A DNA stretch of 53,554 bases, filler included, from Jimgerdemannia flammicorona (GCA_003990765.1; 3 parts of 3 records of this genome joined end to end with filler, not necessarily neighbours in it), one strand, 5' to 3'; counted from the first letter of the whole stretch, positions 1 through 38,700 are shown. The notes: generated by a model not told the origin, from the sequence alone. Numbers and translations: made by a program.

Positions 1-58
<58 letters not shown>
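1..58. repeat. Poly-A run at contig end
   Basis: Homopolymer that abruptly truncates the LINE RT motif LDQEKAY; probably an assembly break. Confidence 0.9.
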
Positions 59-60
<2 letters not shown>

Positions 61-3000: not shown

Positions 3001-4050
3001 TGAGGGCCAGTCCCTCAGCTTCTTTATAGCCTTCTTCTCAGCCAGCTAAAGTCTGATATATATCCATATCTTCTGTCCGAATGAAGTCCCCTCCCAGACC
3101 TGAAAACCAATATTGACTATCTTGCTATACTCAGCTATAGTCTCCTCTACCCTCCTCCTTATCTTGACCATCATCATTATGAGCACTCTCTTCACTAGTA
3201 GCTGGATCACTCTGGGGTCCTATCTTAGACAGCAAACTATTAGAACTACTATCTTACCTATAGTCAACCCTATCTTCAATATCTCCTCTAAGGGAGCAGT
3301 CTTCTCAAAGCCCACCTCTACTCTCTCAAGCCTCTTCAGGAACTTCACCAAGGCAGCTCCAGCCATCTGCTTTAAGATCAGCCCCAAAACTATCTTTACT
3401 ATTACTGCTAAGCTCTGGAAGCACAATGTGATTACAAACTCCAAGATTGATTTCTTGAGTAATGGGGCCCCTGCTAGACTTATTATACTATCAGCCAGAT
3501 TCTCCTACTCCTGACTATCCCCTGTACTATACTTCTCTCAGCCATTATATCTCTTTTTTTTTCTAGATTTCTCATTATACTGTTATTAGCAGTCACATCA
3601 CTTCTCCCAGCCACCGTCTCTCCTGCTCCTACACTTGCTCCCCTAAGCAGAGGACCTCCTGCTCTTGCCAGATTAGTCTTAACTTTCCTCTCAGCTACAC
3701 CAGTCCAAGTATCTACCAGTCATCCCCTCCTCTTCACCTTGTCAGTAAAGCTAGGGGGCCCAGACCTACTCTTATTTCTACCAGATACTGGCCCTCCTCC
3801 AGACCTTTTATTACTATTTATACCTCCAAAATCACCCATCCCCAGACTATATGTAACTCCTCTCTATATACTGTCAGCTAAATGCTCCAAGTCCACCTAA
3901 CTCAGTATATCTATTGGGACTCTTGTTTGATATATATTACTAGTATCTTTTCTCTGAGTTATATCAAAAAGTATTGTCTAAAGTTTATACGTATAATATG
4001 AATTGTACTAGAGAAAAAGGTGAGGATTCTTCTTTTGATGAGAGTAGTCC
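59..4050 (-). mobile_element. Degenerate L1/Tx1-type non-LTR retrotransposon (LINE copy 1), cut inside RT by the contig end
   Basis: Minus strand: ORF1 remnant (~3940-1930, homologous to the ORF at 41578-40724), APE endonuclease start LLNVNGLRG (~1865-1838), RT start RLVFLDQEKAY (~90-59). Many stops. The 5' head (~3950-4030) matches the heads at ~41570-41641 and 44755-44828. Confidence 0.9.
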
Positions 4051-15400: not shown

Positions 15401-16807
15401 GCTTAGCATAAAGCTTGTGTTTTCACAGAATCTCCAGGACTATTCAAATGTATTTGAGATGTTCTTCTTTAGTTATACTAAAGATCAGGATATCATCAAG
15501 ATATACCAACAGAAAAATAAATAATTGGTCCTTGAATATCTTATTCATCAGGGTCTAGAATGTAGTGGGTGCATTAATGAGACCAAATGCTAAGACAATG
15601 AATTCATAGAGTCCAAAGGGGGTCATGAATGCAGTCTTGGGAATATCTTCTGGCTTGATTCGAATCTGGTAGTATCCTGACATGAGGTCTAACTTGGTGA
15701 AGTACTTGGCATTCTTGAGAGCATCAAAGATTTGATCAATCAATGATAGTGGATAGTAGTTCTTGATAGTGAGTTTGTTGAGTATATGATAGTCTATATA
15801 TATTTACAGGGTACTATCCTTTTTCTTGATGAATAAGACTGGTGAGCCATAAGGAGATTTGCTTGGCTGAATGGCTCCTCATGCAAGCTTCTAATTTCTT
15901 CTTGACTGCTTCAATTTCAAGTAGTGACATGCAGTACATGTGTTTCTTGAGTGATATAGCTCCTGGGGTCAGTTTAATTTTATAATCAACTTCTCATATA
16001 GGTGGTAGACCAGGTAGCTTATCTGGAAAGACATCCTTGAATTCTTCTAGCAGTAACTTGACACTTTTATTGACTGATAGTCTCTTGGCTTGTTCTTGGA
16101 ATAGACCATTATAATAAAGATACATATACATTGCCTTTTTGAGTGCTCTCTTGTACTATATAGCTAACAGTATTGCAATCTGGGTCTTCCTTATAGTCTT
16201 GTCTATCTTGATAGTGATATTGGCTCTATCTTGAAGTAGGGTGACTTCATTCTTGCACAAATTGATATCTGAGTTGTGTTATATAAGCCAGGGTTTTCCT
16301 AAGATCAGGTCATGATCTCTTAGTGGTATAATCTCAAAGTCTACTCATTCCCAATATTTCTGGATCTTAAAGGATAGTTTGGTGGCAATTGACTCAATGG
16401 GGTACAGAGTACTATCTATAGTGACTATACTATTGTTCTTGGATATAGGCTTGGTAAAAATCTTGAGACTTTTGATGAGATTCTGATTGATGAAGTTTCC
16501 TATAGCTCTGCTGTCTATGAGTACTTGAACTTCTTTTCCTTTGACTAGGCCTTTGAAAATGAGTATAGCTTGAGCTCAATTTTCACTAAGAATTGCTGCT
16601 TAATCAGTGCTGCCAAAACCTTTTTGATCTCATTTAGTTTTAGAGAGTTCTTGAACTTCTGTAATTTTGAGTTAACTGGCTTTTTCTAGTATCATTTATG
16701 CAACTCAGTCTCCTTCCTTGACTGTGTAGTCTTGATTCTTCTGGTTGATAAGCAGAACTTAAACTTGTCCTTGAAAGTCTTGATCAATGATATCAGTATC
16801 TATATCT
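12438..16807 (-). mobile_element. Chromovirus (Ty3/gypsy) copy A: protease-RT-RNase H-integrase-chromodomain-PPT-3' LTR; gag lost
   Basis: VLIDSRAIGNFI (protease, ~16525-16490); [25 protein letters not shown] and VYLDDIL (RT, ~15700-15490); TTDTSNFAIRAVL (RNase H, ~15045); integrase ~14500-13480; chromodomain EYKAEKILNK...EYLVK...DATWE (~13380-13270); PPT 12900-12913; LTR 12438-12899. Confidence 0.92.
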
Positions 16808-17785: not shown

Positions 17786-17885
17786 NNNNNNNNNNNNNNN
17801 NNNNNNNNNNNNNNNNNNNNNNNNNNNNNTTAATTAATTAANNNNNNNNNNNNNNNNNNNNNNNNNNNNNNNNNNNNNNNNNNNN
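17786..17885. other. Artificial contig-join spacer (44 N + TTAATTAATTAA + 44 N)
   Basis: Six-frame stop linker at 17830-17841. Confidence 0.97.
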
Positions 17886-19162
17886 TTTTTTTTTTTTTTT
17901 TTTTTTTTATAGTCACTTGAACTTCCCTTTATTACTGCTATCTATAATAATAATACAATCTCACCCCATCACCTAACTGATACTCCTTGGATCCACTCCC
18001 CCTCCCTCCACCCCTTTCTACCAGTAGACAATCTAACCATCCACCACCTGAATCCTCCCACCACTCTTCTGTACAATATACTGTACCAAACCCCTATAAC
18101 TCCCCCCCCCAGGCCCCCACCCTTACCACCAGCCATTCAAAATATCCAATAGTAACCATTTCCAACATGTCACTCTATCTCCAATCTCTCTCCACTGACC
18201 CCTCTCAAATACATATGTCCAATGCTCAGCCATCTCAACTCATATAGCTAGAGCCCAACTGAGGGTCAGCTATTCATCCCCTACCCCTCCAACCAACCTG
18301 TGACAAAGCTCTTCCCACCTCCCCCCTTCCACTCCCTCCAGAACTTGCAACCTTAGACAATCTGTAATATGATACCAAAATACCTCTAAGATATCACACT
18401 CACCAAGCCAATGTTTAGGCATTTATATCACTCCCCCTTCCTGTCCAACACCAAAACATTCTTCATACTCAAATGTACCACTGGCCACCAAGTATCCAGA
18501 CCAGTAGTTCAACATCATATTCTACTACAGAACTTGCCACCATATCATCCAGAACTTGTGGGGTAGCCACTGTATCACTCACTTACTTCACATCTAGAGA
18601 TCATTCCAGTCCCACTCTTTGTTAATCCCAACCCTCTGCCAGGCTTCAGGCCAAAGGTCCCTACCCAAGCCCCACAAGCACTCCATTCCATCACTAAGCT
18701 AAAAGTCCTCCACCAAATCACTGCCCAGCAGTAGCCTATCCCATCTCCACATTTGTGGTCTCCAATCCTCCTCTCTCTCCTCACCCCATCTGAAGTCTAA
18801 TTTTCTTAGCACTATCCACCACCCTCCACCAAAAGCCCTTATACTGTATCCTTCTGCTCCCATCCATGGCCACCATTGCCAGCAGGTCTCCTGAATCACC
18901 ATGGGGGGAATACCGGACCTCCCACACCCTCTGTATGAGTGGCACCCACTTCTGACCCCTTAGTTCACTTGCTCTCCTCAGCCACCAGGCTCTCAAGCAG
19001 TAAAGATGGTTAGAAAAGTCCACTAAACCCAGTCTGCCTCTTTCCACTGAGAGGGTAAGGACCTCCTATCCTATCTGACTTTGCCGCCCTGCTCAGATCC
19101 ACAATCTCGCCAACTTCAATAGTCTTCTGACCACCCAAGCTGGGAAGTCCAGATGATACCCC
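17886..19162 (-). mobile_element. LINE copy 2, 3' fragment with poly-A tail
   Basis: Poly-T 17886-17908, then tatagtcacttgaacttcc as in copies 3 and 4. Translation LGLVDFSNHLYCLRAWWL and a C-terminal Cys/His knuckle. Ends at the hAT TIR. Confidence 0.88.
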
Positions 19163-19453
19163 TAGTGCTCCAAATGAATGGAGTTAATCTGGATGAGATT
19201 TGATTCAGATTCGTCATGTGATGGATTCAAATCAACTTGGATTGGTCTCATGATCTGATCCGAATTGATCCAGATTGATCTGGATTAATCCATCTGGATT
19301 GATCCATCTGGATTGAAATCTTTGGTGACATTACCCTTTCTTTTGTTCATTTCACTCTTGTTTTTTTTTTCCTATCATACTTTGGTAACATTACTCTTTT
19401 CTTTATTTTCTCTCTTTTCTTTGTTCTTTTTCTTTATTCTTTCCTGCTACATC

Positions 19454-21594
19454 ATGAGCAAACAAAACAGCAGCCCTTAATTCATACATTGGTCCAGTCT
19501 ACTCATTTTTCACCTTGCAATAATTGTCAAAAGAGAGAGTATTTGAGGTGGAAACTTACTCTCTGCTGATAATATTAGATTCTTTCTCATATGGGCAGTA
19601 CACAAGCTGCTCATTGAGAGCCAAAGGGGTGACAGTAGTGGCGATGGTGATAGTGATGGTGATGGTGATGGAAGGGATAAGGGTGAATTCTGGCAATAAC
19701 TCATAGTGGTCCTTTAGACCTCAGAATTCACAGACCTCACAGCTATGTATGTGGCAGCCTTTTTGGAGCAGCCAGTAGTAGATATAGGTTGCTCTTTTCT
19801 GCTACTACTTTTTACTTATTTAAATTCCCCCAGTATGACCCAATTCACCTCATGCTCTTCTTAGGGTCCACAGCTCTACAGTGAGATCTGCTGACTTTAT
19901 TTATAATATCTGGTCAAGATGAAGAAAGGTTGGAGGACATTGTAGGACATATCTTTAGTGGCTGAGCTATTGAGTCAATGCATTGTAGGACATATCTTTA
20001 GTGGCTGAGCTGTTGAGTCAATGCATTGTATGGTAGAGGTCTCAAAAGGAATAGAAGCAAGCTTTCATGAGCAATCTTGTACAACTCATGCAACTTGTTG
20101 GCATGTAACTCATTGGTATACAGCTTACTCACTCACTCACTCATACTCTTTTTCTGAAATACCCATCTCTGTATTTTATTTAATTTCATTTTTTACATGG
20201 TCTCTCTCTAAAAAATACCCACACCTACATGCAACCTGCTCACATGCAACTTACTTACATGCAATCCATTTGCACACAATCCGTCTGCATATAACCCATC
20301 TGTACACTTATCTTGGTCCCTCAGATCAGGGCTCAGTTCTATTGGAAAGGAGAGTTCAAAGTTACCTGAATTCAACCATGTCTAGCATCTGATCAAATAG
20401 AGAAATTTGAGGGCAAGATGTTCAGCATAAGCAGTACCAGTATCATCATTAAGACTTGGGGGTCTACATTCGAATCAGAGCCAATTATACTTGACCAAGG
20501 AGTCCATTGGCCAGCAAGAGTAACCAATGATGAAGAGAATCATATCTTTATTAACAAACATGAAGAGGTAGTTGTGGTGATGATAAGAAACCTCTATAGT
20601 AATGAGCTTCATCACTACATCAATAAGATTTGCAAGGATTGCATCAAATACTGGGTGGCAGAAAAGAGAGGGTGAAAAAAGCAAGGAGGGGGGGTTTGGA
20701 CAGGAATTGGATATACTTCAACACTAGTGAAGGGTGGGTTTCGGAGTTCCAAAATTCCCCACACTTATCTCTCCCTTTTTTTTTTCTCCTCTCTAGATAA
20801 ATCACACTCTTTGCCAACATACTCTTTTTAATACAATTCTAGAGATACACAAGATTCTGTACCCCTACTGGAACTTTAGAAATACTGTTGAAGAGCAAAC
20901 TGCATGTGAGCATGATACAGTCTATATGGCAATGGTGGCTATGATCTGGGGTTCTTTGAGTAGATTGATAGAGTATATAGCAGGCCAGCTTAGTAGTAAT
21001 CTCAGCACAACTATACATACATTCTTGGTATAATTTAGTATGCCATATAAGGTTGAGGAGCTCCACTTTTTTGGGGTGCTACAGCCCAGGAGATTTCTGC
21101 AGCCTGGGGGGTTTCTGCAGCCCAGGAGATTTCTGCCCTCTTGTATGCAAAAAAGACTGACCAGTTGCCATCTGTTTTGATAGGTTTCCAAGTCAGGACT
21201 CCCAGGGCTGGACCAAGAGCAGGCATCCATCAGTACAGCCTAGCAGTATGAGGTTCTGGGCCAAGAGTTCACCCAACCATACACTTGTATCACATTAGAA
21301 TATGTTAGGTGCAACATTTCTCTGCCTATACACACAGATAACAATATCATCCCAGTAATGTTTTACATCCTAGAAAGGAAGGGCCCAACCTGGGAGGATA
21401 GCAAAGGAGTCTGGTATGACCTCACCTACAGTTTCAGGGTCCTGTTTGCAGCCAATACAGCTGTCCTCTTCCAACCACATGACTACCACAGTACCATTGC
21501 CTTTGAGGAGAGCTTAGACACAACAGTCATCATACTCACAACAGATGATAGGCTCATCAAGGTCTGGGACTGGCAGGTGGAGCAGTTTTTGTAA
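19454..21594 (+). pseudogene. Spliced TET/JBP-like 2OG-Fe(II) dioxygenase pseudogene (cargo of hAT copy 2)
   Basis: Exons 20325-20733, 20843-21051 and 21184-21594 join in frame through GT-AG introns (343 codons, 4 stops, no frameshift). Motifs: VVVVMIRNLY...EKRG, TGIGY, QPYTCITL..CNISLPIHTD (HxD 21331-21339), GVWYDLTYSFRVLFAANTAVLFQPHDYHST (distal His 21487). Upstream exon(s) from ATG 19454 are uncertain. Confidence 0.7.
19938..20030. repeat. 43-bp direct tandem duplication (cattgtaggacatatctttagtggctgagct(a/g)ttgagtcaatg x2)
   Basis: Directly visible, one mismatch. Confidence 0.9.
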
Positions 21595-21847
21595 GAGTTA
21601 GGTAATCTTTTGCAAGGGATAGACAGTCTTTTATAAGGGTTAGGCAGTTATTTTGTATGGGTTGAGCAGTCTTATGTAGGGGGTTGGGCTAGGTGCCTCT
21701 TCTGTAGCACTAGCTTAGCCATTATACAGAGCCCTACTGGCCCCTCAGCCCTGCTCTGTAGTGCCACTGGTGCAGCACTGTAGCACAGGGCCAGGGTACC
21801 CATGGGACCTGAACCAGTGATAGGGCCTAAATCTGTGGTAGACTTCG

Positions 21848-22690
21848 ACTGCCAGAAGCACCCTCTGACTACCGGAAATGCCCTCCGACCACCAGAAGCA
21901 CCCTCCAACTACCAGAAGCACCCTCTACCCCAGACTCCTTGATGGCTTGGGGCTGCCCCTATGCTACTGGCAGAGGGCCACAAATTTTGCATACTCCCTC
22001 TATCTACCCTGCCTATTCCAGACACTTGCAGCTTGGGGCTGCCCCTTGCTGCTGGTGGAGGGCTACAAATTTTGTGCACTCCCTCGCCAACCTCATGCTC
22101 ACCAACCCTGCCAACTGACCCCATCCACTGATCTGGGCACTAACAGCTTGGGGCTGATAGCTTAGAGCTGCCCCTTGCTACTGGCAGAGGGCTACAAATT
22201 TTATACACTCTCTCCACCTACCCCACTTGTCCCAGATACTTGCAGCTTGGGGCTGCCCCTTGCTACTGGCAGAGGGCTACAAATTTTATATACTCCCTCC
22301 ACCAACCCCATGCCCACCAATCTCGCCGACTGATCCTGCCCACTGACCTGAATACTGACAGCTTGGGGCTACTCCTCACTACTGGTAGAGGGCCACAAGT
22401 TTTGCATGCTCTCTCTGCCAACCCCCCCTCCACCAACCCCCCCTCTGCCAACTCCCCCTCTGCCAACCCCTCTGACCAGGACACTTGTGGCTTGGGGCTA
22501 CCCCTTGCTGCTGGTGGAGGGCCACAAATTTTACATGCTCTCTCTGCTAACCCACCCACTGACCCAAGCACTGACAGCTTGGGGCTGCTCCTTGCTACTG
22601 GTGGAGGGCCACAAACATTGCATACTTCCTCCACTACTACTGCCAACTCTGCCGACTGCTGCCCACTTGAGCTGCAAACTCCAGGCTGAG
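21848..22690. repeat. Compound minisatellite between cargo gene and transposase
   Basis: 19-bp ccagaagcaccctc units x4 (~21850-21927), then about 7 units of 85-130 bp with core gcttggggctgccccttgctactggcagagggccacaaattttgcat. Confidence 0.9.
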
Positions 22691-22787
22691 TCCTCAGAGT
22701 TTTTTACCTTTTTATTATTTTTGAAAGGTATTAAATATTCCACAAGGCCAACCAACTTATCCGCAAACCCCCAGGACTTACTGAATT

Positions 22788-24560
22788 TTAGTGGCCTGAG
22801 CCCCACCAAGACTTCAGATACATATATGCCTAGATTGTCTCAGTATTCAGTACACACCTCTTTGGGGCAATGAGGTCTACCCCACCTGAGAACACTTGCT
22901 TGACAGGAGCGCTAGAGGCAGGAATCACCAGGTAGTCCTGAGCTATGCTACACAGACTGAGGAAGTTCATTTGACACAGCTATATGCCCCAGTAGATAGA
23001 TCAGTAGTTAGATTGGTGGGTTAAATTGGCCCAACACCCACCTGACAACTCACCTTCTACCAGTTGAGTACCTCTGCACCCTCCAGCAGGATCACACAGT
23101 TACTGGTGAGGTAAATGGTAAGTTCATCTATTGATAGTAGCTCTTTTACTGACAGCTCTCTCTTCCTCTTTCTGCTGAAGTAAATGTGGGACAAAAGGGA
23201 TCCCTCAGCATATTTATCTGAACTTTGGCCAGAATCTTGTAGTGGTGTATAGTTTTTCTGGTACACTTTGATTATGGCCTACTTGGTTCTCTCAATGAAG
23301 TACTGCTCCCAGCCCTGATCTTTATGGTATTGTAGCTTTAAGCATGAGTTCAGTACTGTTCAAAGAAAAGGAGAGAGTGAGTTTTTGCAGAGGTTTCTCT
23401 ATTTTGGAAGGGGCAATGGCCACATGCTGACATCAACATATCTGTACTGATTGAGTATATGGCAGTATCTGTTTGGGAGTAGTACTTTCTGAGCTTACTA
23501 AGAGCAACCTCCATGGTATCTCTCTGATCCAGGCTCAACTGTAAATCACCACAACTCTCCAGTCTGTTCTTGAGCTTATCCTTTAGCCAGTCAATCAGAA
23601 GGTTGTATACTAGTATTGCTGAGCTTATTATCAGGGTCATTTGTTTGACTATATCCTTTATACAATCATTGAAACACTGGTAGTTATATGTGGTGAGATG
23701 TTATATTGTGCAGAGGTAGACAAAACAAGTATGGAGGCTGACAAAACAAGTGTGGAGCCAGAGCAATTACCACTTACTTCCAAAACTCTGACAATATTCC
23801 TAAGTATATCCTACTTGCTTTTATCTAGAGCCTTGGCCTGTATTTCCTTGTCAGCAGTCACTGTTGAATCTATTGGCTTTTTTTGTTTTTTGTTTTTTTT
23901 TTTAAAATAAATCTTCAATCATCCAAAATAAGTTGCTTCAGCTGACTGAAGAAAAAAAGAACACATACTACAGCAAACTCCAGCACATGCTGGATCATTG
24001 CAAATATTGAGTTCCAATGTATACAGACATCTAATATAAGCTCTTTCGGGGCTAAACTGATTGCTCTACACTGTGTAGTGAATTTGTCTTATTGTTGTAG
24101 GGACAATTGGACTGACACAATCAGTTTGCATAGCTTGGAAATTATACTCAGGGCCCCTCCTCTCTCAGATGTTTTATCTATGTACATAAGATAGTCCTGA
24201 ACAGCAAGGTTTAGTATATGGGCCTGGCATCATATATAGCAGCTTTCTGTACTGAAGGCTATATTTTCCTGTTTGAGGCTGGCTACTAAAACTTTGAAAA
24301 ATGTTGAGTTGTTTGTGGCATTATTCATTGTAATGGTCAAAATCTGTACTTGAAATATTTGGTTGGTGAATTTATGTAAAAATAAATAACCAATAAAATC
24401 TGGTTTGTTTTAGAATCTCTCTCAAAACACTGATCTGACAGTAAGCCCCCCTTTTTTTACCTTAGTTGTGATTCCAAGCTCCCAGATACAACTAATAAAA
24501 GCATCTGCAATATTGTCTCCAGAATGAGGGCCAGCAAGTTTAATGAAGTCAAGCAGATAA
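22788..24560 (-). pseudogene. hAT transposase, C-terminal half, intron-containing
   Basis: LLDFIKLAGPHSGDNIA; ITTK|ILTITMNNATNN across a phase-0 intron 24460-24344; CQAHILNLAVQ; LILDVCIHWNS (from DVxTRWNS); dimerisation domain with intron 23053-22980, then SIAQDYLVIPASSAPVKQVFSGG...LKSW. Confidence 0.92.
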
Positions 24561-26619
24561 ACTGTCTTTCTGGTGATAACCTTGGCTGAGTATAAGTCTA
24601 GATCACTGTAGTCTTTACTATTGCTTTCTTCTTCAAAGTCTTCAATAGAATAGACTTCAGTATTCTTATACTGGGTTTCATTCCTTTAGTTTGGTAGTTC
24701 TGAGTCCCTTTGGTTACTTATTTTGTTATTACATTCAGTGGCATAGTATCTAAATTATCTACAGTAGAAGTATTGGACTTGAGCTCTGTTCTAGACAGAG
24801 TATCTTCTTCCTTCTTACTGGTAGCTCCTATTATCTCTGAGTAGATAACCTTAGTTCCTTTATGGTGCATACTCTCTATTGTCTTGTGAGTAGCTCTGAT
24901 TTTTATATGTAGTGAGTTTTTCAATCTGTCCCACCAATTAATCCAACTTGGAGCTGAGATCTTGAATTTTATTTCTATCTTTCTTCTATTCTTTAGCTGG
25001 TTTCCTTTCTTTAGATCTTTCCTATCCTTAAAGAAGTTCTTGTAGAGCTTTGATCAGGATGTCTTCTTTGTTATCTTTCTTATTATGATCACTCTAGATA
25101 AATTTTTGTCTGATATCAAAAAATCCTTGGCCTGCATCTACTTATTCCTCAGATCTTCTGATGTCTAAGGTGTAGATATACTGAGCAATATTTGGAGAAA
25201 TTCCATTTATGAAGATCATTGGACCTATGATGTCTTGGTTAGCAGCATTGAACCTGGCAGCATATATTCTCTTTTGAATTCTTATAAAGAATGCTCTGGA
25301 CAATTATTTAAGATTTATCTTCATTCCTATAGTAGATTCTTATATTTTGTAGCAGGTCTTGTTTTCTGTATACTTTTTAATAAATCAGTAGGTCATGGTC
25401 TCATACTCTGCTAGCCAGATTGGTGCTGTATTGATGGCTGCTCTAAGGTCTGAGTTTAGGTTATTTCTTGCTTAGATAAAAATTCCTTTGGCTGGTTCTC
25501 TGAGTTGGGCCTTATAGATGACAATTTTCCTTTTGGGAGAAAGGTTCTTCAGAGCTGATATTTCTTTAATTCCATTAAGGAATTCTCTTGGGTCTTCTTC
25601 TGGATATTCTGCAAAAGTTGAGAGTAGGGTGGCCATTTCATATATTTTAATTCTAGTTCTGATTCTGACTCTGGTTCAGATTTGTATTCTGGTTTACTTT
25701 CTAAGTTGTTGCTGGAGTTTGGGACACTTGGGTATCTTGAGAAGGATGTTGGAGACCTTGGACAAAGTAGAATAAGTCTGGATATTTTTAAAGAAGCTAC
25801 TTCTTAATTTTCTTATTCTATGACAGCTGGTAGTAGAGATTCAATGGGCAAAATTAATGGAACTTCTGTAGGAAATTGAACTTGTTCAATAAGATCCTCA
25901 AGTTGTTATACAAGCTCATCAAAAACTCTAATAGGGCTACCTGTATAATCTAGTTGATCTGGTTGATCTAGTAATAAATCTATTGGTATGTACTGGCTAG
26001 AGATTCTATACTATACTGGCTTTTTGTTGGGATCTTTCTGAAGCTAGATAGTTGATAAGTCTTGAAGTAATTACTTCTCTTTCTATTTAAATACTGGTGA
26101 TGACTAGTTCTTCTATAGTGATAGAGATTGATATTATATCAAATGTATCTAATTTGACTATGGGTTCTTATGAGCTGAAAAGTTATATTAATTTTGAAAT
26201 CTTCCCAGTTAAGTCTCAAATATAATATACCTAGCTCAATAGAAGCAAATTACAAGGTTGGGAGTTGATATAGTTTAACTTGAGCCCCTAGTTACTTTGT
26301 CAAAAGTAATAAAATATTCTAAAATTCCTAGTATCCTTATTGATATTTACATAGTAGTATAATAGTCAATTTGAATATAATGATTAATTTATATTAATTT
26401 TCTTATTGGGATGGTTTTCTGAATATAGTGACAATTTGTGTATATATAGTATGAGTGGTTTTCTTATGTATAATGATCTGATAATTTGGTAGTTCTTCTT
26501 ATATGATTTCTGTGTAATAATCTCTTATATAGTATAATAATCTCTATATAGTATAATGATCTCTGTATAGTACAATGATCTTCAAAAATATATAATTTCT
26601 AGTAAAATGATCTTAGTAG
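24561..26619 (-). mobile_element. Older, more decayed copy of the dUTPase-gypsy family (partial 5' LTR, PBS, gag)
   Basis: Reverse complement is colinear with ~27750-29735. Confidence 0.9.
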
Positions 26620-28114
26620 TATAACAGACTAAAACATACTACCCGAATTATAACTTAGCCAGATGACGCGAACAATTAGCATACTTACTCAGCATGATGT
26701 GACTTCCAGTGTATCATAATTACTCATGCCCACCATACTTATAATTAGCCAAGACACCAGATCAGGATTGTTTACCTGTATCCTGAGGACACACTCATGT
26801 CCTGCAGACACACTCATGTCCTGTAGACACACTCATGTCCTGCAGGCACACTCATGTTCTGTGGACACACCTGTACCCAGAGGACACACCCAAACATTAC
26901 TGAAGATAGCAAATCTATAGTTAGCCACATAGTAATCAGATAGCAACCAACTTGTATAAATTACCCCAGAGGCGAGAGTGAATAAAACCTCAGTCTGAAT
27001 TGAAGTGCAAACCAAAGAAGCCTCTAAAGATTGAGCAATTGGTCCCCTTATTCCCACTCTGGTCCACTTTCTGATACAAAGCTGATTTTGCTGCCAAGTT
27101 CAAGAAAGAACTTCGCCGCCTTTGGAACTATTAGTTCGCTTACCAGATAAGCCTGAAGATTTGCCACCTAAGTTCAAGGAGAACTTCGCTGCCTTTTGAG
27201 TAATCCACCGCTTAAGGAATAAGCCGCCATTTTCAAGAAGTCCACCGATTCAGGAAGAATCTGCATCATCTGCCATTTCCAAGTTATCCCTCACTACATT
27301 CTCAGAAAGCCACCTTGCTCAAGCCAGTTTCTGATGCAACTTCGCAGTGATCTGTTGTGCAAACGAAGTCAGTCCTTAATGCAACTTTGCCAAGAGACCC
27401 TTTCCAAGAATGCCGCCAGTTGTTTGTATTCTCAGTAGAAGCCCGCCGATTCAGGGAGAATCCACGTCATCCCGTTTCCCAGTTAAGAGCCTGCTGATTC
27501 AGGAAGAATCTGCATCATCCAAGTTACCCGAGTTATCAAATTATCTGCCTCCTACGACATCCAAGTTATTCACCATTCTCAGTGAGCCTGAGTTATTGAG
27601 TTATCTGCCACCCAAGATAATTCCCAGTTGAAGCCACCGAGTTATCCGCATTCCCCGAGAACCCCGCCATTTCAGGAAGAATCCGCACCATACAATTCCC
27701 AGTGAGCCAAATTGAGTTATCTGTCAAATTATCAGAATGCCCCACATAAGGAACCTGCCGCGCTACACAAGAGATCATCATGCAGAAATCAGAGACCATC
27801 ACCCAAGAAGGAGAACCACTAAATTGCCAGACTGTCACACCCAGAAATTGCATACTTTTGGAGATTGTCACGCTACACAAATTATTGTAGCATTCCCAGT
27901 TGATCCAAGAAGGAAGTCCATTTACACACAAATCGCCACTACACCCAGAGAACAGTCCGAATAAGGAAATCGCTCACAGATATCCAGCTTTGACTATTAT
28001 ACCACTAAACACCAAGAACATTTTGTTGCTTTTTGACAAAGTAACTGGGGGCTCAAGCCAAACTACATCAACCCCCAACCTTGTAATTTGCCTCTATTGA
28101 GCCGACACATTACA
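26620..28114 (+). repeat. 5' LTR (~1.5 kb)
   Basis: Starts tataac (decayed tgtaac) and ends cattaca; homologous to solo LTR 51437-52795; 19-bp gacacactcatgtcctgca array at ~26787-26890. Confidence 0.85.
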
Positions 28115-28116
28115 TT

Positions 28117-28134
28117 TGGGGGCTCAACTGGGAA
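28117..28134 (+). promoter_or_regulatory. Primer-binding site, tRNA-Pro type (TGGGGGCTCAACTGGGAA)
   Basis: 2 nt after the LTR end; resembles the canonical Pro PBS TGGGGGCTCGTCCGGGAT after CpG decay. Confidence 0.8.
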
Positions 28135-28150
28135 TAATTTCAAAATCAAT

Positions 28151-30109
28151 ATGACAGTCAAACTGGATACATTTGATACAACACCAACCTCTGCCACTAC
28201 AGGAGAACCAGTCATCACTAGCATTTGGATAGAAAGAGAAGTAATTACCTCAAGACTTGCCAACTACCCAGCATCAGAAGGATCCCAACCAGAAGCAGGA
28301 GGCAGTATAGCCCGAAATCCTCAACCAGATCAACTAGATCAACCAGACAATACAGGCAGCCCTGCTGGAGATTTTGGAGAACTTGTACAGGAATTAGAAG
28401 ACTTTATTACCCAGATCCAACACTTTACAGCCAGATACCCCACACCAGTCCCACCAATCTCACCAATAGAACCCCTACCACAACCTCTTGCAGAACCAGA
28501 AGTAGCTTCTATAAGGATACCTAGGCCTATTCTATCTCACCCAAGGACCAGAACACCATCTTTGGAATACCCAAGCTCCCCCACCTCTAGTGACAGTTCA
28601 GAAAGCGAATCAGAATCAGAATCCAAACCTGAACCAGAATCAGAAGAAAGTGATGATGAAATGGCCACTTCATTGCCAACCTTTGCAGGATATCTGGAGG
28701 AGGACCCCAGAGAATTCCTTGATGGAATTGAAGGAATTGCAGTCTTGAGAAACCTTTCAGATGAAAGAAAAATAGCCATCTATAAAGCCCAGCTCAGAGA
28801 ACCAGCCAGAGGAATTTTCCATCGAACAGCAAACAACCAAGATTCAGAACTAGCAAGACAGATATAAGCAGCAATGTCTTATAAGCTAGAATATGAAGCC
28901 ATGGTCCACTGGCTCATCGAAAAGTATGCAGGAAATGAAACCCGCCACAAGGCTCAGGAATCTATCATAGGGATAAAGATAAATCTTGGAGAATCACCCA
29001 GAGCCTTCTTCACAAAAATCCAGAAGAGAATGCATTCTGCCAGGTTCAATGCCACCAACCAAGACATCATAGGTCCAATGACCTTCATGAATAGAATTCC
29101 TCTGAACATTGCCCAGCATGTCCATACTCTAGGCATCAGAAGGTCTGAAGAGCAAGTAGATGCAGCCCAAGAATTCTTTAATGTCAGGCAAGGAACTACC
29201 TGGAGTGATCATGATAAGAAGGAAGATAAAGAAGATATCCTAATCAAAGCCCTGCAAGGACTCCTTTAAGGACAAGAAAGATCTGAAGAAAGAAGGCCAG
29301 TCAAGGAAGGAAAGAAGAACAGAAGTGAAATCTAAGACCTTAGCTCCAAGCTAGATCGATTGGTTGGCCAAATTGAAAAACTCACTACACATGAAAATCA
29401 GAGCTACCAAGACAACAGAGGATACCCATCACAGAGGAGCCAAGGTTATCCACCAAGAGATAACAGAAATTACCAGCAAGAAGAAAGAAGGTACCCTGTC
29501 TGAGACAGAGCCCAAGTCCAATGCTTCCACTGTGGACAATTAGGATACTATGCCACTGAATGTAACAATAAAAGAAGTGACCAAAGAGACTCAGAACCAC
29601 CAAACCGAAGGAATGACACTCAGTACAAGAAGACTGAAGCCCATCCTGTTGAAGATTTCGAGGAAGCAAGCAACAGTGAAGACTACAGTGACCTAGACTT
29701 GTATCCTATCAAGATTACCACCCAAAAGACAGTCTACCCAGCAGAAAAAAGAAAGAGACCTGTGGGAAGACCCTCCAGGAACATCAGCAGGAGAATCATT
29801 CAAGAAGAAGATGAAGAACATAAGGAGGAACAAGTTGAAACACCTCCCCGAACCCCCCCATCTTTTGTGTCTGAGACAAATGAACTGCCACCAGAAGATG
29901 AAGAAATGGAACAAGAAGAATGGGAACCTGCTGCTATAAAGTCTAAGAAGAAGTACACCCTGAAGACCATGCTTAGGGATATTTACAATGAAGCCTGGCA
30001 GAAGATTCAAGAAGCCAAGATGGAAGTCCCTCTCCTGCAGTTCTTGCAACTGATACCAGCTGGAGTCCGAAACAAATTACTGAGAACCACCAGGTCTAGC
30101 ACTGGCTGA
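28151..30109 (+). pseudogene. gag: Gag with long acidic/Pro-rich N-terminal extension
   Basis: ORF pieces 28088-28867, 28874-29269 and 29699-30109; capsid-like LPTFAGYLEEDPREFL; CFHCGQLGYYATEC knuckle. Confidence 0.85.
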
Positions 30110-31849
30110 GTTCCAATCCCACAACAAGAACCAGCTTCCACCTCAGTTCAAGCAGCTGAAAGACATGTCAGCATCTACTTATATAGAGATATTGGAGGAC
30201 AAAAAGTGAAAATCCTCATAGATACAGGAGCAGCTGTCTGTGTCATTGCCAAATGATTCTTGGACACCCTCCAATGGCCCATTGATAGACCATCCAACCT
30301 CAGCATCATAGTAGCAGATGGAGCCCAAACTCAACCCCTTGGAGAAGTATGAAATATCACCATCTCCCTTGGACACATTCAGTTCTCCATCCTCAAAGCT
30401 GTTGTCACTGAAGCTGTCACCTATGACATGATTCTTGGTACCAACTGGATGAAGGAAATGAATGCAGTTGTTGATATTGGCCAACAAGTACTCAAGTTTG
30501 ACTACCGAGACAAGAAGTATAGAGTTAAGGTGACCAGCTATGAGCAATCAAAGAAGAAGAAGAAGGTTACTATTCTAGAAGAATATGCCAGCAGTGAGGA
30601 GTCTACTACAGAAGAGGAAGAAGAATACGAAGATGGAAATGATCCCAGACTCAATCCACGAATTAACCTAGTGGATGACAGACCAGAAGACAATGTGTGG
30701 GCTAAGAACGCTATCCCTATCACCATCAGAGCCATCGCAGGAGAAGCCAAAGGATGCCCTACATGCCTCAAGAGACACAAGTGTCCTGAGCACTCCTCCA
30801 AGATCATGGGAAAAAGGAAATCGCCTGGTGCAGCCTGCCCAGAATGCAGAAGAAAGAAGAAGAAATGCAGACATGTTTCAGAAATACCTGTAACCGAAGC
30901 TGCAGAAGTACAAGCAATTTGGGGTCAAGAATCATCTAAGGAAGAAGAAACTTCTGACCAAGAAGTTCCTGAACAAGAAGCATCTGATGAAGAAGAAGTC
31001 CCCAAACTCATCCCCTGGGATGACCCTTGCTGGACACCACCTGAAGACAATGACCCCTGAAATACAGAGGAAGGACCCAGTACCATCACCATTATCCCCA
31101 AGAAAGAAACCCACCAAGAGAAAGCTTTCTGGCTAGGAAGGTGTCCACATCAAATGGTCTTCCACTCTCCCCGAGACTATTGCTATTAGTGTCATCTGTT
31201 GGACCAACAAGAAAGACAGAGACCCCAGAGACCAGAACTCTCAACTACTCTTGTACAGTCTACCACCTTTCAGGAAGTCACCACAAGGTTACAAAGTCAA
31301 TTTAGAGGACAAGGCTTCTTTACCCAAACAGAAATATACCCCTTGTCTACCCTTCCCCCAATCTACGATTAAGATGGGTACCAATTCCCAAGACAACAAG
31401 AGATAAATAGCAGGGAATATCATTTCCGAGCAATGGGATATTGCAACCATGAGAGACACCCTGACTGCTGAGACTGCAGACATCAGAAGATTCATCTCAG
31501 TCATGATGTTGCGGTGCACACCTTGAAGAAAGGAGATAACCGAAGCCAGATTCGAAAAAGTCAGATTCGAAAAAGCCAGACCAAGAAGCCTGGAAAATGA
31601 ATTCTCAAGATCTACGATTTAGGAGAAGACATTCTAGTTCTCATCAGACATATAACCTACTAAGGATGGGCAGAAGATGCCACCAACTTCATGGAAGCCC
31701 TTGACCCTACAGAAAGGAGGGGAATCAATTACCTCCAAGACCCCTCTACTGGAGCCAGATGGCCACACCTCAACCTTAGAGCTTGGAGGCTTTCTGCTAG
31801 TGGAGCTTCAGCCCTAGGAAAGCCTGAACTCAGCAAGGACATTGCCCAG

Positions 31850-32250
31850 TATGCCCTGCTGCACCCCAAGGCCAAACCCCCAACCAAAGCCCACCCAGAG
31901 GATATAGGATATGATCTTTACAGTCTGGAGGATGAATCTATCAAGCCTGGAAAAACCTTCATGGTCAGAACGGGATTAGCTATGCAACCACCTCAAGGAG
32001 CTTAATTCAACTGACCTCAAGGTCTGGACTTGCCAGACAAGGGATAACTATAGAAGGAGGAATCATTGACCCTGGATATACAGGTGAAATCAAGGTTATC
32101 CTATACAACAGCAGTGCAGAATGGCACCGAATCATTAGAGGACAGAAGATTACCCAAGCAGTCTTCATGAAGGTCAAGACCCCACAGTTACAGGAAGTCT
32201 CTAGACTAACCAAAGGGACAAGACAAGCTGAAGGATTTGGGAGTTTAGAC
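31850..32250 (+). pseudogene. dut: Trimeric dUTPase domain within pol
   Basis: All five motifs present: DIGYDL, SRSGLA, GIIDPGYTGEI, ITQAV, RQAEGFGS; one frameshift at ~32003. Confidence 0.93.
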
Positions 32251-32799
32251 AGAAAAGAGGTATATCTCCTTTAAGTCAACCACCTCAAGAGGAATGTTCC
32301 CCAGCAAGTATATCGGCAACCAGTCAGACTACACAAGAATCTCATCCTGGAGCCTGGAGAACAAACCACCTTCGAAATATTTGCACCACCCAACCCCAGG
32401 AACCTTTTCTTTGAACCCAAGGAAGATATCCCACACCTAGACATAGAGGGATATACATTCCCTGACAAGATGAACCCAGTACACTCCTGAGCAACCAACC
32501 AAAGTTGGGAGACCATCATCCTGCCAAAAGGAACTATTATAGGACATCTGGTGCCTTTTCTCAACTGAACTCATAGGGAAGTTTATGAATTAAACCTATC
32601 GGGAAATGGCAAAAGGTCCCAGAAGAAAGGAAAGGCCCCTCTGCGACCCAGGAGACAGTGAAGCCTTCCACCAATATTGGAGAAGAATTGATACCTCAAC
32701 AATAGCAACAATTAGTAGAACTTCTCAACAAATATCAAGATATCTTCACCACCGATTATGGCAACCTGCCATACAACCCATAATATCACCACAGCATAA

Positions 32800-35148
32800 A
32801 TACAGGAAGTGCAACACCCATCTGGCAGAAACCCTATAGAATACCCCATCACCTGAAAACATTCAAAAAGGAGTACATCCAAGAACTCTTAGACAATGGA
32901 GTCATCCGACCCTCTACCAGCCCCTGGGCCAGCCCTATACTTATTGTACCAAAGAAAGGAGGATGGAGACTCTGCATAGATTACAGAAAACTCAACTCAG
33001 TTACTGAAAAGGATGCTTATCCTTTGCCCAGAATCAATGACCTTTTGGACCAGTTACAAGATACCAGATACTTCAGCAGTATGGACCTCTTCACAGGATT
33101 CCATGAAATCTCCATAGACCCCAAAGACATTCAAAAGACAGCCTTCCTTGCTCTAGAAAAACTGTTTGAATACCTCCGAATGCCCTTTGGACTTTGCAAT
33201 GCACCCCCCACCTTCCAGAGGATGATGAATTCAGTCTATACCCCCTTGATCCACCACTGTCTGATTGTATATATGGATAATTCCAACATCTATTCAGCAA
33301 ATTTCGAAGAACACCTGCACCACCTAGAGGAATTCTTCAAGCTCACCTGCAAGAATTACTTGAGACTGAATGCAAAGAAATGCTACTTTGGAAAACAGAA
33401 ACTCGAATTCCTGGGATTCATGGTTTCAAAAGAAGGAACTCATACAGATCCAAAGAAAACCAAGAAGATCAACAATTGGCCGGTACGGAAGACTCCAAAG
33501 GAAACACTATCATTCTTGATGCTAGTATCCTACTACAGAAGGTTTATCAAAGATTTTGCCCAAATCACTGCCCCAATCTGAATCCTTCTCAAGAAAGGAG
33601 TGCCATTCAAATGGACAGAATCACAAGAAAAAGCTTTCAGAGAACTCAAGAACTGCATGACTATAGCACCAATCCTTGTGTGCCCCAATCTACAGAAGCC
33701 ATTTATCTTGTATACAGATGCTTCTAAAGATGGCCTAGGGGCAGTTCTAGCCCAAGAAGGACCTGACCAACAGCACTATATGATAGCTTATGCAAGTAGA
33801 GCCACCAACCAGCAGCAGATGAACTATGGTAGCACCAAACTGGAATGTCTTGCAGTCATATGGGCGATCACCCTGTTCAAGCATTACCTTATCAGAAAAA
33901 GGTTCACCCTGATCACAGACCATGCAGCTCTCAAATGGCTATTCAACCACAAGGAACCTGCCGGAATCCTAGCCCGCTGGATCCTTATCCTTCAGGATTA
34001 CAAAATCACCATCATTCACAAAGCAGGAAAAGCCCACAACAATGTTGATGTACTTTCCCACCAGCCCCAATGAATCAGATAAAGGGTGTCCTGAGGAACT
34101 ATACCCTAAAGGAAGCTCCTCAGACTATCAAAGCATGAGAAGATCTCATCCGAAAAGAACATCAGAAAGCCCACCAAGGATAGACAAATATAGAAGACAG
34201 GATTCGAAAACAATATCAACATTGGCCCCACCTCAGAACTCAAGTCCGGGACATTATTCAGAAATGTGACATCTGCCAGAAGTACCAAGGAAAGAAGAAC
34301 TATCAAGCCCCTCTGCAACTGATCCCCCCACCCACTCACATCCTTCAAAGATGGGGAGTAGATGTAATTGGACCTCTACCAGTTACACCAAGAAGAAACA
34401 AATACATCCTTGTATTTGTAGAACATCTGACCAAGTGGTCTGAGGCTTTCCCAATGGAAATCGCAGATGCCTTAACCATTGTAGGCCTCCTCCATGGACT
34501 CACACTCAGATATGGACCTCCAGGAGAACTCATTTCTGACTGAGGCACAGAATTTATCAACAACATAATCACAAGTTATGCCCAAATTCACAAGATCCAC
34601 CTCAAAAGGACCACATCATACTACCCCCAGACCAATAGTATGACAGAAAGAATGAACCAGACCATCAAGAAAGGACTTGCCTGAGTCAATCCTACCAATT
34701 GGGACCTCTGCTTACCTGAGATCCTATGGGAAATTCGGAATACCCCTGCCATGTCCACCAAACAAAAGCCATTCAAAATGATGTTTGCTAAGAAAACCAG
34801 AACTGCTGACCAGGAGAATCTCAGAGACCTCCTCAAGAAGGCAGAACAGTTATGAAATCAAGCCCAAGGACAGATTATCAAAGCCCAGGAAAGACAAAAG
34901 AAGTACTATAACCAAAAATAGAAGAATCAGGAGATCAAGATTGAAGATCAAGTCCTAGTTTGGAGAAGCATGATTGAGACAAACTTTGCCACCAAACTGG
35001 AACCAAAATGGGAAGGACCTTATCTTATACACAATATCAGAGGAACCAGCATCTATTTAAGAAGCATGGATGGATGAACCCTGAGAACACCAGTACACAT
35101 CAATCGCCTCAAGACATACTTCACCTCATACCATGAATCAGAGAATTG
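32800..35148 (+). pseudogene. pol: RT - RNase H - integrase of the gypsy element
   Basis: SPWASPILIVPKKGGWRLCIDYRKLN, MPFGLCNAPPTFQR, YMDN (decayed YMDD), LYTDASKDGLGAVL, KCDICQK, WGVDVIGPLP, YYPQTNSMTERMN, KLEPKWEGPY. Confidence 0.95.
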
Positions 35149-35223
35149 ACAACCACCTCCAAACTCTTGTTCTCAGTTTCCTCTAAGCCCTACCAGTTCC
35201 CCTGCCTCAGTTCTGGGAACCCA

Positions 35224-35645
35224 ATGGAACCTATCTTCAGAGAATCTGAGTTCATCAAGAGAACCTCACTTTGGCTGAAAGGCTACTCCAGGTCCACCAG
35301 CTGTAGGCATATTATGCAATTGGAGAACAATTGCAGAATCTTCCTCTCCCTGACCTAGCCTATGTCCAAAACACCACTGGCCTGAACAGAAGGAATACTA
35401 CTGCTGCAGACAGACTATATACAATATATAAACAAAATCCTTCTATCTTAATCCAAGCCCAGTTTTCCCTGAATGACCTCCAAAGGATGATACTACCCAC
35501 CTACCTCAGCATTATTCACCAAGTGGAGACCCTATTTCCTGAGGAAGAAGAAGAGCCCCTGGAATGGAGTGACCGCAGCTCAGATGATGATGATGGAACA
35601 GGTATAGATGCAGAAGCTGCTTATGCCTATTGGGATGATGACTGA
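35224..35645 (+). pseudogene. ORF3: accessory protein downstream of pol (~140 aa, one frameshift), acidic tail
   Basis: MEPIFRESEF...IMQLENNCRIFLSL / AYVQNTTGLNRRNTTAADRLYTIYKQNPSILIQAQFSLNDLQRM...EEEEEPLEWSDRSSDDDD. Confidence 0.7.
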
Positions 35646-35670
35646 AGAATAGTCTGGGACAGACTACCCT

Positions 35671-35770
35671 NNNNNNNNNNNNNNNNNNNNNNNNNNNNNN
35701 NNNNNNNNNNNNNNTTAATTAATTAANNNNNNNNNNNNNNNNNNNNNNNNNNNNNNNNNNNNNNNNNNNN
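35671..35770. other. Artificial contig-join spacer (44 N + TTAATTAATTAA + 44 N)
   Basis: Linker at 35715-35726. Confidence 0.97.
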
Positions 35771-38700
35771 TTATAGTCACTTGGACTTCCTTCCTTTATA
35801 ATGCCCATTTATCCCATACAAATACAGTGATCCCACCTCCTATCCAATCTCCCTAGGGGGCCCCCCCCTTACTCCCCTACCCCTATCTGACAAAAGGCCA
35901 CTTTGTCTGATACTATCTCCACTCTCCCACCACTCTGTTCACAGATCCTTGCCACCAAACTGTGACATCGCCCCCCCTGAGGACTCCAACCCACCCACCA
36001 TCCAGTCAGCAGATCCCCCAACAACTCCTCTCACTGTAATATCTTCTCCTGTAGCCCCATCTACTACCCCTCCTTGAATACATAAAGCCAATGTCCAGCC
36101 AATCTCACCTACACTACTAACACCCACCCTACAGTGAGCCAACTATCCTCTATACCACCTACTAGCCAAGATCTCAAGTCCTCCCGGCAGCCCCCCTCAC
36201 CTGCCAGCCTTTGCTCCACACCCAGTCTATTTCCTATCTCTCTCCAAAAGTCTCCCAAAATCTCACACTCTCTCAGCCAATGTTCTGGTATCTGCACAAG
36301 TCCCCCAGCTTGCCCTATATTGTAACACTCCTCACAATCCAAACGGCCACCATCTACTAGATGCCCAGTATGAAAATTCAATATGACATTTCTCCACAGC
36401 ATTCGCCACCATACCACCCAGAACTTGGGAGGGAGCTACCTCTGCACCTCAGCACTCCAAGACCAGATACCTGCCCAGTCCCACTCCTCACTGATCTCTG
36501 CTGCCTGCCAGCCCCTTGGCCAAAGATCTTGGCCAAGACCCTACTGACACTCTACTCCATCCCCAATATCAAACTCATCAAGTAAAGTACCCCCTAGGAA
36601 CAGTCTATCCCATCGCCACATATCTGTACCCCACACTATCTCCCCCTCATTGCCTTGCCAGCATAGGTCAATTCAGTGTGCTCCATCTACCACCCCCCAC
36701 CAAAAGCCCTTAAATCACAGCCACTGAGTTCTATTCAGCCCCACCAAAGAGAGCAGGTCTCCTGAGGACCCTCAAGGGGAGGTTCTCATCTCCCACACCT
36801 TCTGTAGCAGTGGCACCCAACTCTCTCCCTGTAGTTCAGCAGCTCTCTTCAACCACCAGGCTTGCAAGCAGTACAACCTCTTAGGAAAATCCACAAGACC
36901 AAGATCTCTCCTGATCACTGGTGTCACAAGAGTATCCCAACTGATCTGGGATCTCCTCCCTGCCCAAATCCAATCTCTAGTCATCTTTGTCAGCCTTTTT
37001 ACCACCCAAGCTGGGAAGTCTAGGTGATAGGCCATATGCCATAGCTTGGAGAACCAGTAGATATTCAGAATTGACACCCACCCTGCCAGAGAGATATAGT
37101 GGCCTCCCCAACCTTGAAGGGCCTCTCCCCAAATAGTCACCCTGCTCTCCCACCACACTCATGGCAAGACAGAACTATATACAGAAAGGAAGATTCCCAG
37201 GTACCACACCACCTCACCAGTAGGGACAATTGTTCCAATAACATTCCCACCCACTAGCCCATTCCCTAGCACTATTATCTCACACTTATGCCAGTTGAGC
37301 TTCACCCCAGAGTGAGCCTCATACTATTCCACTGTCTCTTTAAGTATCTTGACATCTGCCACAGACCCAAGTCCAACCACTATATCATCAGCAAAGGCCC
37401 CCACCTTCCACACTATACTATATATAGAGAGCCCTGCCACTCTCTGACAAATCCTATCCATCAAGGGCTCTAATAAAAGAGTATAGAGAATAGAGGACAG
37501 AGGGTCTCCCTGAGGAACTCCTCTTCCCAAGGAGAATGCCAGACCTCGGTAGCCATTATACATCAGTGCCACCTGACTGCTCTCTAGTAGACTCAACATA
37601 GAAGCCTGAAATCTTAGGGGAACCCCAATTCGATCCAATACCTTGCCCAGCCAAACCCACTGTATATGGTCATAGGCCTTCTCCTGGTCCAAAAAGACCA
37701 ATCTTCCATCCAATCCACAAGCCTGGGCCCCTTCAATGACACCATACACCCATGCAGTCTCATCCCTTATAAGTCTGCCCCCAACAAAGCCCTGCTTCTC
37801 CTCCCCCAGCACCTGTTGGGCAACTTTCTGCAGCCTTGTGACAATCACCTTAGTCACCATCTTTCTGTCCATATCCAGAAGCATGATTGGTCTCTAATTT
37901 TTCCAGTCTTCTCTCCTATCCTTGTCTTTGTACAGTAAGGCTACCAGCCCAAGGTCCTGCTCTCCAACCCACTCACCACTCTGAAGAACATGGTTACAGA
38001 GAGCAGCCATCTCACTCAAAACTCCAGGAACTGTTACTATCTTCTTCCAGAAGTCCCATAGTAACCCATCCTCTCCTGGTGCCATTCCAAGCTTAGTTGC
38101 TGCAAGGACACTCTGGATCTCCTCTTCTTGCACTAGTAAGATCAAGTCACCCAGCCCTGCTACTTGTGGCAGCTCCCACTCCTCCAGTGTTTCTTCAATC
38201 GCCTCCTCATCAGCACCCCCTTCCCCCTCACTCCACAAACCCTGCCATCTCTTCTTCAAAACCCCTAAGATTTATTGTGTGCTATGCACCATGTCCCCCT
38301 CGGTATCTAAGACTCCATCCCACCGATGTTGCACCCTTCTAGCTTTGAGGAGTCTTGACAAGTACCTAGTAGGCCACTCACCCTCCTCAAGTCCCTGCCA
38401 CCATAACCTGGCAGCCATTCCTCACATATGAGTCTCCTCCTCCTCTTGCAACACCTGTTGCAGTTCCACTATCTCCAATTTCACCCATGCTAACCTCCAA
38501 TCCTCCACCCTATCAGAAGTAAGCAAATCCACCCAATCCATATGCAGTCTCCTCAGCCTGCTGGAAGCACATCTTCTCTGTCTCCCAGCTTCTCTACCAG
38601 CTTCTCCCCAATAGACCCTCACAGCCTCTTTCAATCTCATCCAACAGACACCCACAGACAAACTCTCATGCCTCTAGATAAAAATCTTCACCTGAATGTC

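Follow-up and report, generated by a model that had tools for sequence, protein, structure and literature searches.

The window analysed here is a stretch of 53,554 nucleotides, filler included, of Jimgerdemannia flammicorona DNA (GCA_003990765.1), and our subject is a degenerate DNA transposon at positions 19163 to 24557. We conclude that this interval is probably the right-hand two thirds of a dead hAT element, lying in an older repeat and carrying, convergent with its transposase, a spliced gene for a Tet-like 2-oxoglutarate (2OG) and Fe(II)-dependent dioxygenase. The arrangement itself, in which a hAT-type terminus lies on one side of the gene and a convergent remnant of a hAT transposase on the other, is supported by the observations set out below.

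A decayed gene in three exons

The preliminary description of this stretch proposed a plus-strand gene whose exons, 20325-20733, 20843-21051 and 21184-21594, join in frame, and our analysis upholds it. The comparison draws on P0004, an intact homologous protein of 374 residues, and on L001, a metagenome contig that carries a homologous gene. The parts of the gene are as follows.

20325..20733, plus strand: exon 1, encoding a strand, a helix and a loop reading ...RG-x-KKQGGGVWTGIGYT; stops at 20367 and 20673; BLASTP match to P0004
20734..20842, plus strand: intron 1, GT..AG, 109 nt, phase 1; position and phase match an intron of L001
20843..21051, plus strand: exon 2, encoding a helical insert; stop at 21031; BLASTP match to P0004
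21052..21183, plus strand: intron 2, GT..AG, 132 nt, phase 0, with an 18-nt tandem repeat inside; position and phase equivalent to those of an intron of L001
21184..21594, plus strand: exon 3, coding for the core, which is rich in beta structure and includes HTD (HxD) and the distal His (YHST); interrupted by a stop at 21241 and closed by a TAA at 21592
19919..20077, plus strand: candidate first exon, with an ATG at 19919; tblastn match of the upstream exon of L001 (E 0.09 at 20007-20075)

Exon 1 has a length of 409 nt, which leaves a junction codon G|AG, and exon 2 closes in phase 0. By BLASTP the three exons match P0004 collinearly (residues 92-166, E 4e-8; 168-227, E 1e-7; 238-345, E 9e-16), and the positions and phases (1 and 0) of both introns recur in the homologue on L001. 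The decayed, spliced gene with three exons is therefore real. Its translations show all four of the in-frame stops that had been described (TGA 20367, TGA 20673, TAA 21031 and TAG 21241) ahead of the terminal TAA at 21592. It had also been pointed out that each of these stops is one C-to-T step from CGA, CAA or CAG; this holds for any TGA, TAA or TAG and is no evidence. In the alignments, TAG 21241 stands opposite a Trp of P0001, another homologue, pointing to a step from TGG to TAG (G to A); opposite TAA 21031 there is a Gln of P0004, and opposite TGA 20673 a Lys in three homologues.

The ratio of observed to expected CpG (CpG o/e) is 0.06 in the element, 0.03 in the gene and 0.03 in the transposase, and TpG and CpA are raised. 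The copy is dead: gene and transposase are both pseudogenes, and CpG is almost lost. The element had earlier been presented as a candidate anti-silencing system; this copy cannot be a working one, with at least four stops in the gene and a transposase that is both truncated and broken.

One more exon probably lies upstream, for which we tentatively propose 19919-20077. A 43-bp tandem duplication (19938-20030) shifts the frame of this candidate, and three further stops lie in it. When the upstream exon of L001 was compared with P0004 by BLASTP, the N-terminus stayed unaligned.

Homologues of the gene

An exhaustive phmmer search of 1.84 billion cluster representatives with exon 3 gave ten matches at E <=1e-3. 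The relatives among them are P0001 (136 residues, 75% identical; E 5e-59), P0002 (E 3e-25), P0004 (E 8e-8) and P0005 (E 2.8e-5). The remaining six, P0003 and P0006-P0010, are long proteins with 3-10 short matched stretches and were set aside as spurious; the two of these that were inspected, P0003 and P0010, are internal-repeat proteins. A word-indexed search with P0004 added P0011 alone, which matches P0004 at E 8.8e-59. The same kind of search with exon 3, among longer proteins, scored none of its 114 candidates, and a profile of alignment A2 run against the database recovered only P0001 and P0004 among 8,000 scored. As these further database searches added only P0011, the family is very small in public data.

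The metagenome homologue is found on two contigs, L001 (1-3666) and L002 (1-2870), which are 99.0% identical over 2,717 nt, have 34% GC and show no CpG depletion (o/e 1.2). It is ~48% identical to P0004 and has four exons; the gene is intact in L001 and has two in-frame stops in L002. Two downstream plus-strand open reading frames (ORFs) of L001, 2320-2601 and 2661-2945, gave no Pfam match.

Affinities of the encoded protein

The product had been assigned to the TET/JBP 2OG-Fe(II) dioxygenases. The evidence supports a protein that resembles 2OG/Fe(II) dioxygenases and has affinities to Tet: three weaker lines, namely the HxD...H motif, the matches to the oxygenase fold and the Tet-like neighbours in the ESM Atlas, point to that part of the assignment. 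Membership of TET/JBP proper is not shown by sequence models, the protein having no Pfam match.

The HxD...H triad is common to the whole 2OG oxygenase superfamily. In the present family both His residues (H283 and H335 of P0004) are invariant in six of six rows, and the window has HTD and YHST at these places. The Asp of the iron triad is present in five of the six rows of alignment A2 and in all six covering rows of alignment A5; members read HTD or HVD.

For the fold we compared the AlphaFold2 (AF2) model of P0004 with 48,161 representative chains of the PDB in a structure search independent of Foldseek, in which rows within 1 Z unit of each other count as ties. The top row was a viral prolyl hydroxylase (Z 10.4, 141 residues aligned, root-mean-square deviation (rmsd) 3.3), and NgTET1 came second of the 48,161 (Z 10.1, 180 aligned, rmsd 4.8). 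Other TET/JBP enzymes followed, namely TET2 (Z 8.4, 188 aligned), CcTet (Z 8.1, 177) and CMD1 (Z 7.1, 189), and by far most of the 50 listed rows were Fe/2OG oxygenases. An Fe(II)/2OG oxygenase fold is thus supported by the predicted model; the fold searches do not separate the subfamily, because Z differences below 1 are ties.

Against the solved TET/JBP enzymes NgTET1 (5cg8, 4lt5), human TET2 (9hxv), CcTet (7vpn) and CMD1 (7cy4), the model shares the double-stranded beta-helix and the N-terminal strand-helix extension. All four enzymes lie in the top 41 of the 48,161 chains, with 177-189 residues aligned; they differ from the model in an identity of 8-14%, with no match at the level of sequence, and the model to which these values refer has a mean pLDDT (predicted local distance difference test) of 40. 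The prolyl 4-hydroxylases (P4H) and PHD2 (4j25, 5c5t, 5ox5) share with it the fold, the HxD...H triad and the best Z values (10.3-10.5), whereas fewer residues align (141-150), there is no link to transposons and the language-model neighbours are Tet-like instead.

The ESM Atlas has an entry for P0001 and none for P0004, P0011 or P0002. By language-model features, the four best named clusters for P0001 are all Tet-like and none is P4H: PF20515 occurs in the first two (score 0.91; 178 and 167 shared features), the third bears the name Tet-like (0.89), and in the fourth 11% of the members have Tet_JBP (0.88). Basidiomycota are the commonest phylum in the first three, and the fourth is mostly viral (67%). 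Among the structural neighbours of the Atlas model of P0001 (pLDDT 0.69) is a cluster, at a template modelling (TM) score of 0.61, in which 28% of the members carry Tet_JBP. We treat these neighbours as leads and not as tests.

The transposase remnant and its breakpoint

The transposase lies on the minus strand and ends, as had been described, at 22788. It runs into a fragment of a Gypsy element.

22788..24557, minus strand: hAT transposase remnant, C-terminal part only, identified by PF05699; several stops and frame changes
24558..25900, minus strand: inverted Gypsy gag fragment adjoining the cut transposase, identified by its match to 29736-28797; the end at ~25900 is approximate and taken from a gag-like ORF at 25472-25675

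The hAT C-terminal dimerisation domain (PF05699) is found at ~22806-22973 with E 1.1e-6 and 28.8 bits, the cutoff being 21.4, and the stop codon occupies 22790-22788. Reading through in three frames also brings out CQAHILNLAVQD and HWNSIFAMIQ, which we take to be motifs typical of hAT. The N-terminal BED finger and full RNase-H-like core of a complete transposase are not both present, and the frame begins abruptly at 24557; because the element is a remnant, we ascribe this to decay rather than to another transposase family.

At 24557/24558 the transposase frame passes directly into the inverted gag fragment, of which 24558-25500 is 77.3% identical to 29736-28797 over 948 nt. The change occurs within one frame, since the ORF at 24422-24685 has gag residues followed by hAT residues. 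From this fusion it follows that the N-terminal third of the transposase and the left end of the element are lost, in agreement with the preliminary description. The window thus holds two Gypsy gag regions, 24558-25900 on the minus strand and 28037-29736 on the plus strand, placed head to head and 77% identical. The junction at 24557/24558 marks a rearrangement or, with lower likelihood, a join made in the assembly.

The insertion boundary and the position of the gene

At its other end the element meets an older repeat, and a block of repeats separates the gene from the transposase.

18375..19158, no strand assigned: older flanking repeat hosting the hAT end, identified by its homology to 36244-37029
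19163..19320, no strand assigned: hAT-type terminus (TAGTG...) with subterminal short repeats, placed by the break in flank homology
21846..22650, no strand assigned: tandem and interspersed repeat spacer between gene and transposase, with repeat families D1/D4 and 20-nt and 15-nt arrays

The flank at 18375-19158 is 66% identical to 36244-37029 over 804 nt, and this homology ends at ~19160, just before TAGTG. The break bears out the right end of the element that had been placed at 19163, and TAGTG agrees with what we take to be the hAT YARNG end. The subterminal sequence holds 2.8 copies of a 14-nt repeat, ATCTGGATTGATCC, at 19278-19316, together with D7 repeats. In the spacer, a ~100-nt unit (the D1/D4 families) recurs in 6-7 copies, whose spacings alternate within 85-129 nt.

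The dioxygenase gene lies between the terminus at 19163 and the stop codon of the transposase, a span of 3.6 kb, and is convergent with the transposase. That the hAT element carried this gene as cargo is plausible. Flanking inverted repeats that might have marked a second element around the gene came only as short pairs with 74-94% complementarity (for example 19766-19781/22634-22649), which we took as chance.

Comparison with published TET-carrying transposons

TET/JBP genes have been reported inside eleven DNA transposon lineages, hAT among them, with 20 TET-encoding hAT families ('hAT7', with a 7-bp target-site duplication (TSD)) in six Puccinia species, and transposon TET enzymes have been proposed to counter methylation silencing and C-to-T hypermutation (Kojima 2025, PMC12730594). 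The preliminary description knew of no described hAT association; the cited sections of this survey contain both the hAT7 families and the same anti-silencing idea. The idea and the hAT link are thus already in print and the copy is a fossil, so the locus opens no new question; it is likely a further example.

In its resemblance to hAT7, as the survey describes it, the window has a hAT element with a TET/JBP-like gene beside the transposase, a fungus-type genome, CpG hypermutation and a proposed anti-silencing role. The two differ in the enzyme, which in hAT7 is of the 'PU type' (GG.MW..GWR, H.D, R.G.S.Q) and by eye farther from the window protein than the 'PE type' is, and in the termini, which are given as CAACGG or CAGCGA for hAT7 and read TAGTG in the window (PMC12730594).

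The PE type is described as very divergent, with an HHpred E of 1.4 to CMD1 and HxE as its stated hallmark (PMC12730594). Comparing the motifs printed there by eye only, we find the same order of conserved blocks, from a first strand E.V.V.IRN to a final ..RL. ELVLVVIRN of the PE type corresponds to EVVVVMIRN of the window, LPRMD to LPGLD or LPRLD of the family, YGIRV..AANT to YSFRV..AANT, and WHGTS to LHGT or YHST, with both closing in ..RL. Both groups are barely visible to sequence profiles, and the Arg of the last strand is variable in the printed PE rows also. The PE type has HxE and the window family HxD, so that the PE hallmark is absent here, and the abstract of the survey names no hAT among the PE carriers (PMC12730594). 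On these motifs we infer that the family is most like the fungal transposon-borne TET/JBP-like enzymes and, by eye, closest to the PE type.

Proposed function and alternative explanations

An intact element would have combined its transposase with an opposite-strand Tet-like dioxygenase of ~350-370 residues, encoded in three certain exons and a probable fourth upstream. We suggest that this enzyme, holding Fe(II) by His-x-Asp and the distal His and working with 2-oxoglutarate, would have acted on DNA by oxidising 5-methylcytosine or some other methylated base, and that this oxidation would have relieved methylation silencing and slowed the CpG-to-TpG decay of the carrier element. In the present copy host defence prevailed, since CpG is nearly gone from the element. 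Transposons with a methylation-erasing enzyme of their own are a striking counter-defence to genome silencing. The locus likely adds a divergent enzyme lineage that is missed by current domain libraries, and it should be useful for the annotation of fungal repeats and for surveys of TET-like proteins.

A number of results tell against this interpretation, some of them concerning the enzyme and others its place in the element. The AF2 models of the family are poor (mean pLDDT 40.2 for the first, of P0004, and 36.1 for the second, with 10 rows), and Foldseek with the first model gave no match at E <=1e-3. Pfam, including PF12851 (Tet_JBP), the check that the preliminary description had proposed, and PF20515 (2OG-FeII_Oxy_6), gave no match at E up to 10 to the exons or to the homologues P0001, P0002, P0004 and P0005, in searches where the HMMER filters discard most matches above ~E 0.1. 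A sequence search of the PDB gave no match to P0004 or to the family profile. The Arg that binds 2OG on the last strand, which had already been noted as not obvious after the distal His, is absent from the whole family: its position reads T in the window, P0001 and P0002, H in P0004, and N in P0011 and L001. The window clade has an Arg ~21 residues after the distal His (..DDRL), and R298 of P0004 is invariant. In a rival reading the product is a 2OG/Fe(II) oxygenase with a substrate other than DNA, such as a protein hydroxylase like P4H or PHD, and its gene merely happens to lie in or beside the transposon; the want of a Tet_JBP match in Pfam speaks for this. Prolyl hydroxylases tie with or exceed NgTET1 in Z (4j25_B 10.5, 5c5t_A 10.4, PHD2 ~10), and a second look at the matches of Foldseek agrees; the rows that Foldseek listed were all Fe(II)/2OG oxygenases, with P3H1 and P4H as the best. 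An Atlas structural neighbour is likewise named prolyl 4-hydroxylase. However, the gaps in Z are below 1, and so ties, on a model of low confidence; the alignments with TET structures are longer (177-189 residues against 141-175); the nearest named Atlas feature clusters are Tet-like without exception; the motifs match the PE type by eye and not P4H; and the Arg of the P4H type is absent too. We regard a hydroxylase of this kind as improbable. That the 'gene' is nothing but frames left open by chance in decaying repeats, as its four in-frame stops and want of a Pfam domain could suggest, has practically no probability: it is refuted by the phmmer matches to independent proteins (E 5e-59 and 3e-25), the collinear match of three exons to a 374-residue protein and the intron positions conserved in L001. 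Pfam rows under the cutoff (WelO5, E 0.2; Iron_permease, E 0.006; MFP2b, E 0.16) were dismissed.

As to the place of the gene, the supposed terminal inverted repeat (TIR) at 19163 is a single end, a search within the window having found no partner; one end alone gives no TSD, which would be of 8 bp, or of 7 bp in hAT7, and the window has no second copy of the gene. Neither a hAT domain nor any hAT similarity appears in the flanks of L001 and L002 up to 1.7 kb downstream of the homologue, a distance that includes the 1.2-1.4 kb at which the window has its hAT domain. The gene and the transposase are parted by 1.2 kb of tandem repeats in a rearranged region, and the transposase is fused to the inverted gag. 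Nor is the layout that of hAT7, in which TET is upstream and co-oriented in three layouts, whereas the gene in the window is downstream and convergent, and the anti-silencing function of the published TET-carrying families is presented in section 4.2 of the survey as a hypothesis (PMC12730594). The gene might then have come from another element or be a host gene, brought into position beside the hAT remnant by nested insertions or deletions. This deserves more weight than a protein hydroxylase does, and we still think it unlikely, for the gene sits in the span from the hAT-type terminus to the stop codon of the transposase, in which no boundary, TIR pair or further transposase came to light, the CpG decay of gene and transposase is alike (0.03 in each), and TET genes in hAT have a precedent (PMC12730594). 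We therefore keep to the reading of a dead hAT element with a convergent Tet-like gene.

We tentatively suggest, as something rather short of probable, that the window gene, P0001, P0002, P0004, P0011 and the gene of L001/L002 belong to a fourth, hitherto unnamed lineage of TET/JBP-like dioxygenases associated with transposons, sister to the PE type but bearing HxD, unseen by Pfam and without the usual Arg of the last strand, and that a hAT element captured it here in a new position, downstream of and convergent with the transposase. Such a lineage would represent a pairing of carrier and enzyme that is absent from the cited sections of the 2025 survey (PMC12730594), and would hint that 2-oxoglutarate is held in another manner.

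Other features of the window

The window as a whole has 38.6% GC and a CpG o/e of 0.13, and is repeat-rich eukaryotic DNA of fungal type; no Rfam families were found anywhere in it. Pfam searches of 89 of its 136 ORFs of at least 75 residues gave no other DNA transposase and no Helitron domain, only domains of retroelements; the remaining 47 ORFs were the three exon ORFs (scanned separately), frames from the Gypsy and 36-41 kb regions that were overlapping or antisense, and the low-complexity block at 43.7-44.9 kb.

The Gypsy-type long terminal repeat (LTR) retrotransposon whose gag resembles the inverted fragment occupies 28000-35650 on the plus strand. It contains gag, a reverse transcriptase (32784-33578), an RNase H (33582-34070) and an integrase zinc domain (34184-34540), as well as a dUTPase domain at 31664-32271 (PF00692, E 1.8e-17), and several of its frames are broken. 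Fragments of reverse transcriptase lie on the minus strand at 15558-15803 (E 1.4e-10) and 37327-37893 (E 3.5e-19), and there is a weak copia-type gag match, under the cutoff, at 49815-50045 on the minus strand (E 1.9e-4).

Four runs of exactly 44 N are found at 17786-17829, 17842-17885, 35671-35714 and 35727-35770. They form two pairs, each split by 12 bases, and the pairs are 17,885 bases apart, both near gag-like sequence of retroelements, and may be masked stretches or gaps.

At 1-4000, 18001-19000 and 36000-41000 the GC skew is very strongly negative (-0.4 to -0.55) and the CpG o/e is 0.02-0.05. There the plus strand is rich in C and poor in G for kilobases on end, which gives rise to long Pro/Ser/Leu-rich frames in several phases; strand-biased hypermutation of old repeats could account for these regions. 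A low-complexity block at 43683-44869 has three open plus-strand frames of 352-374 codons, rich in Leu, Pro, Cys and His, and is a degenerate short-period repeat rather than a gene.

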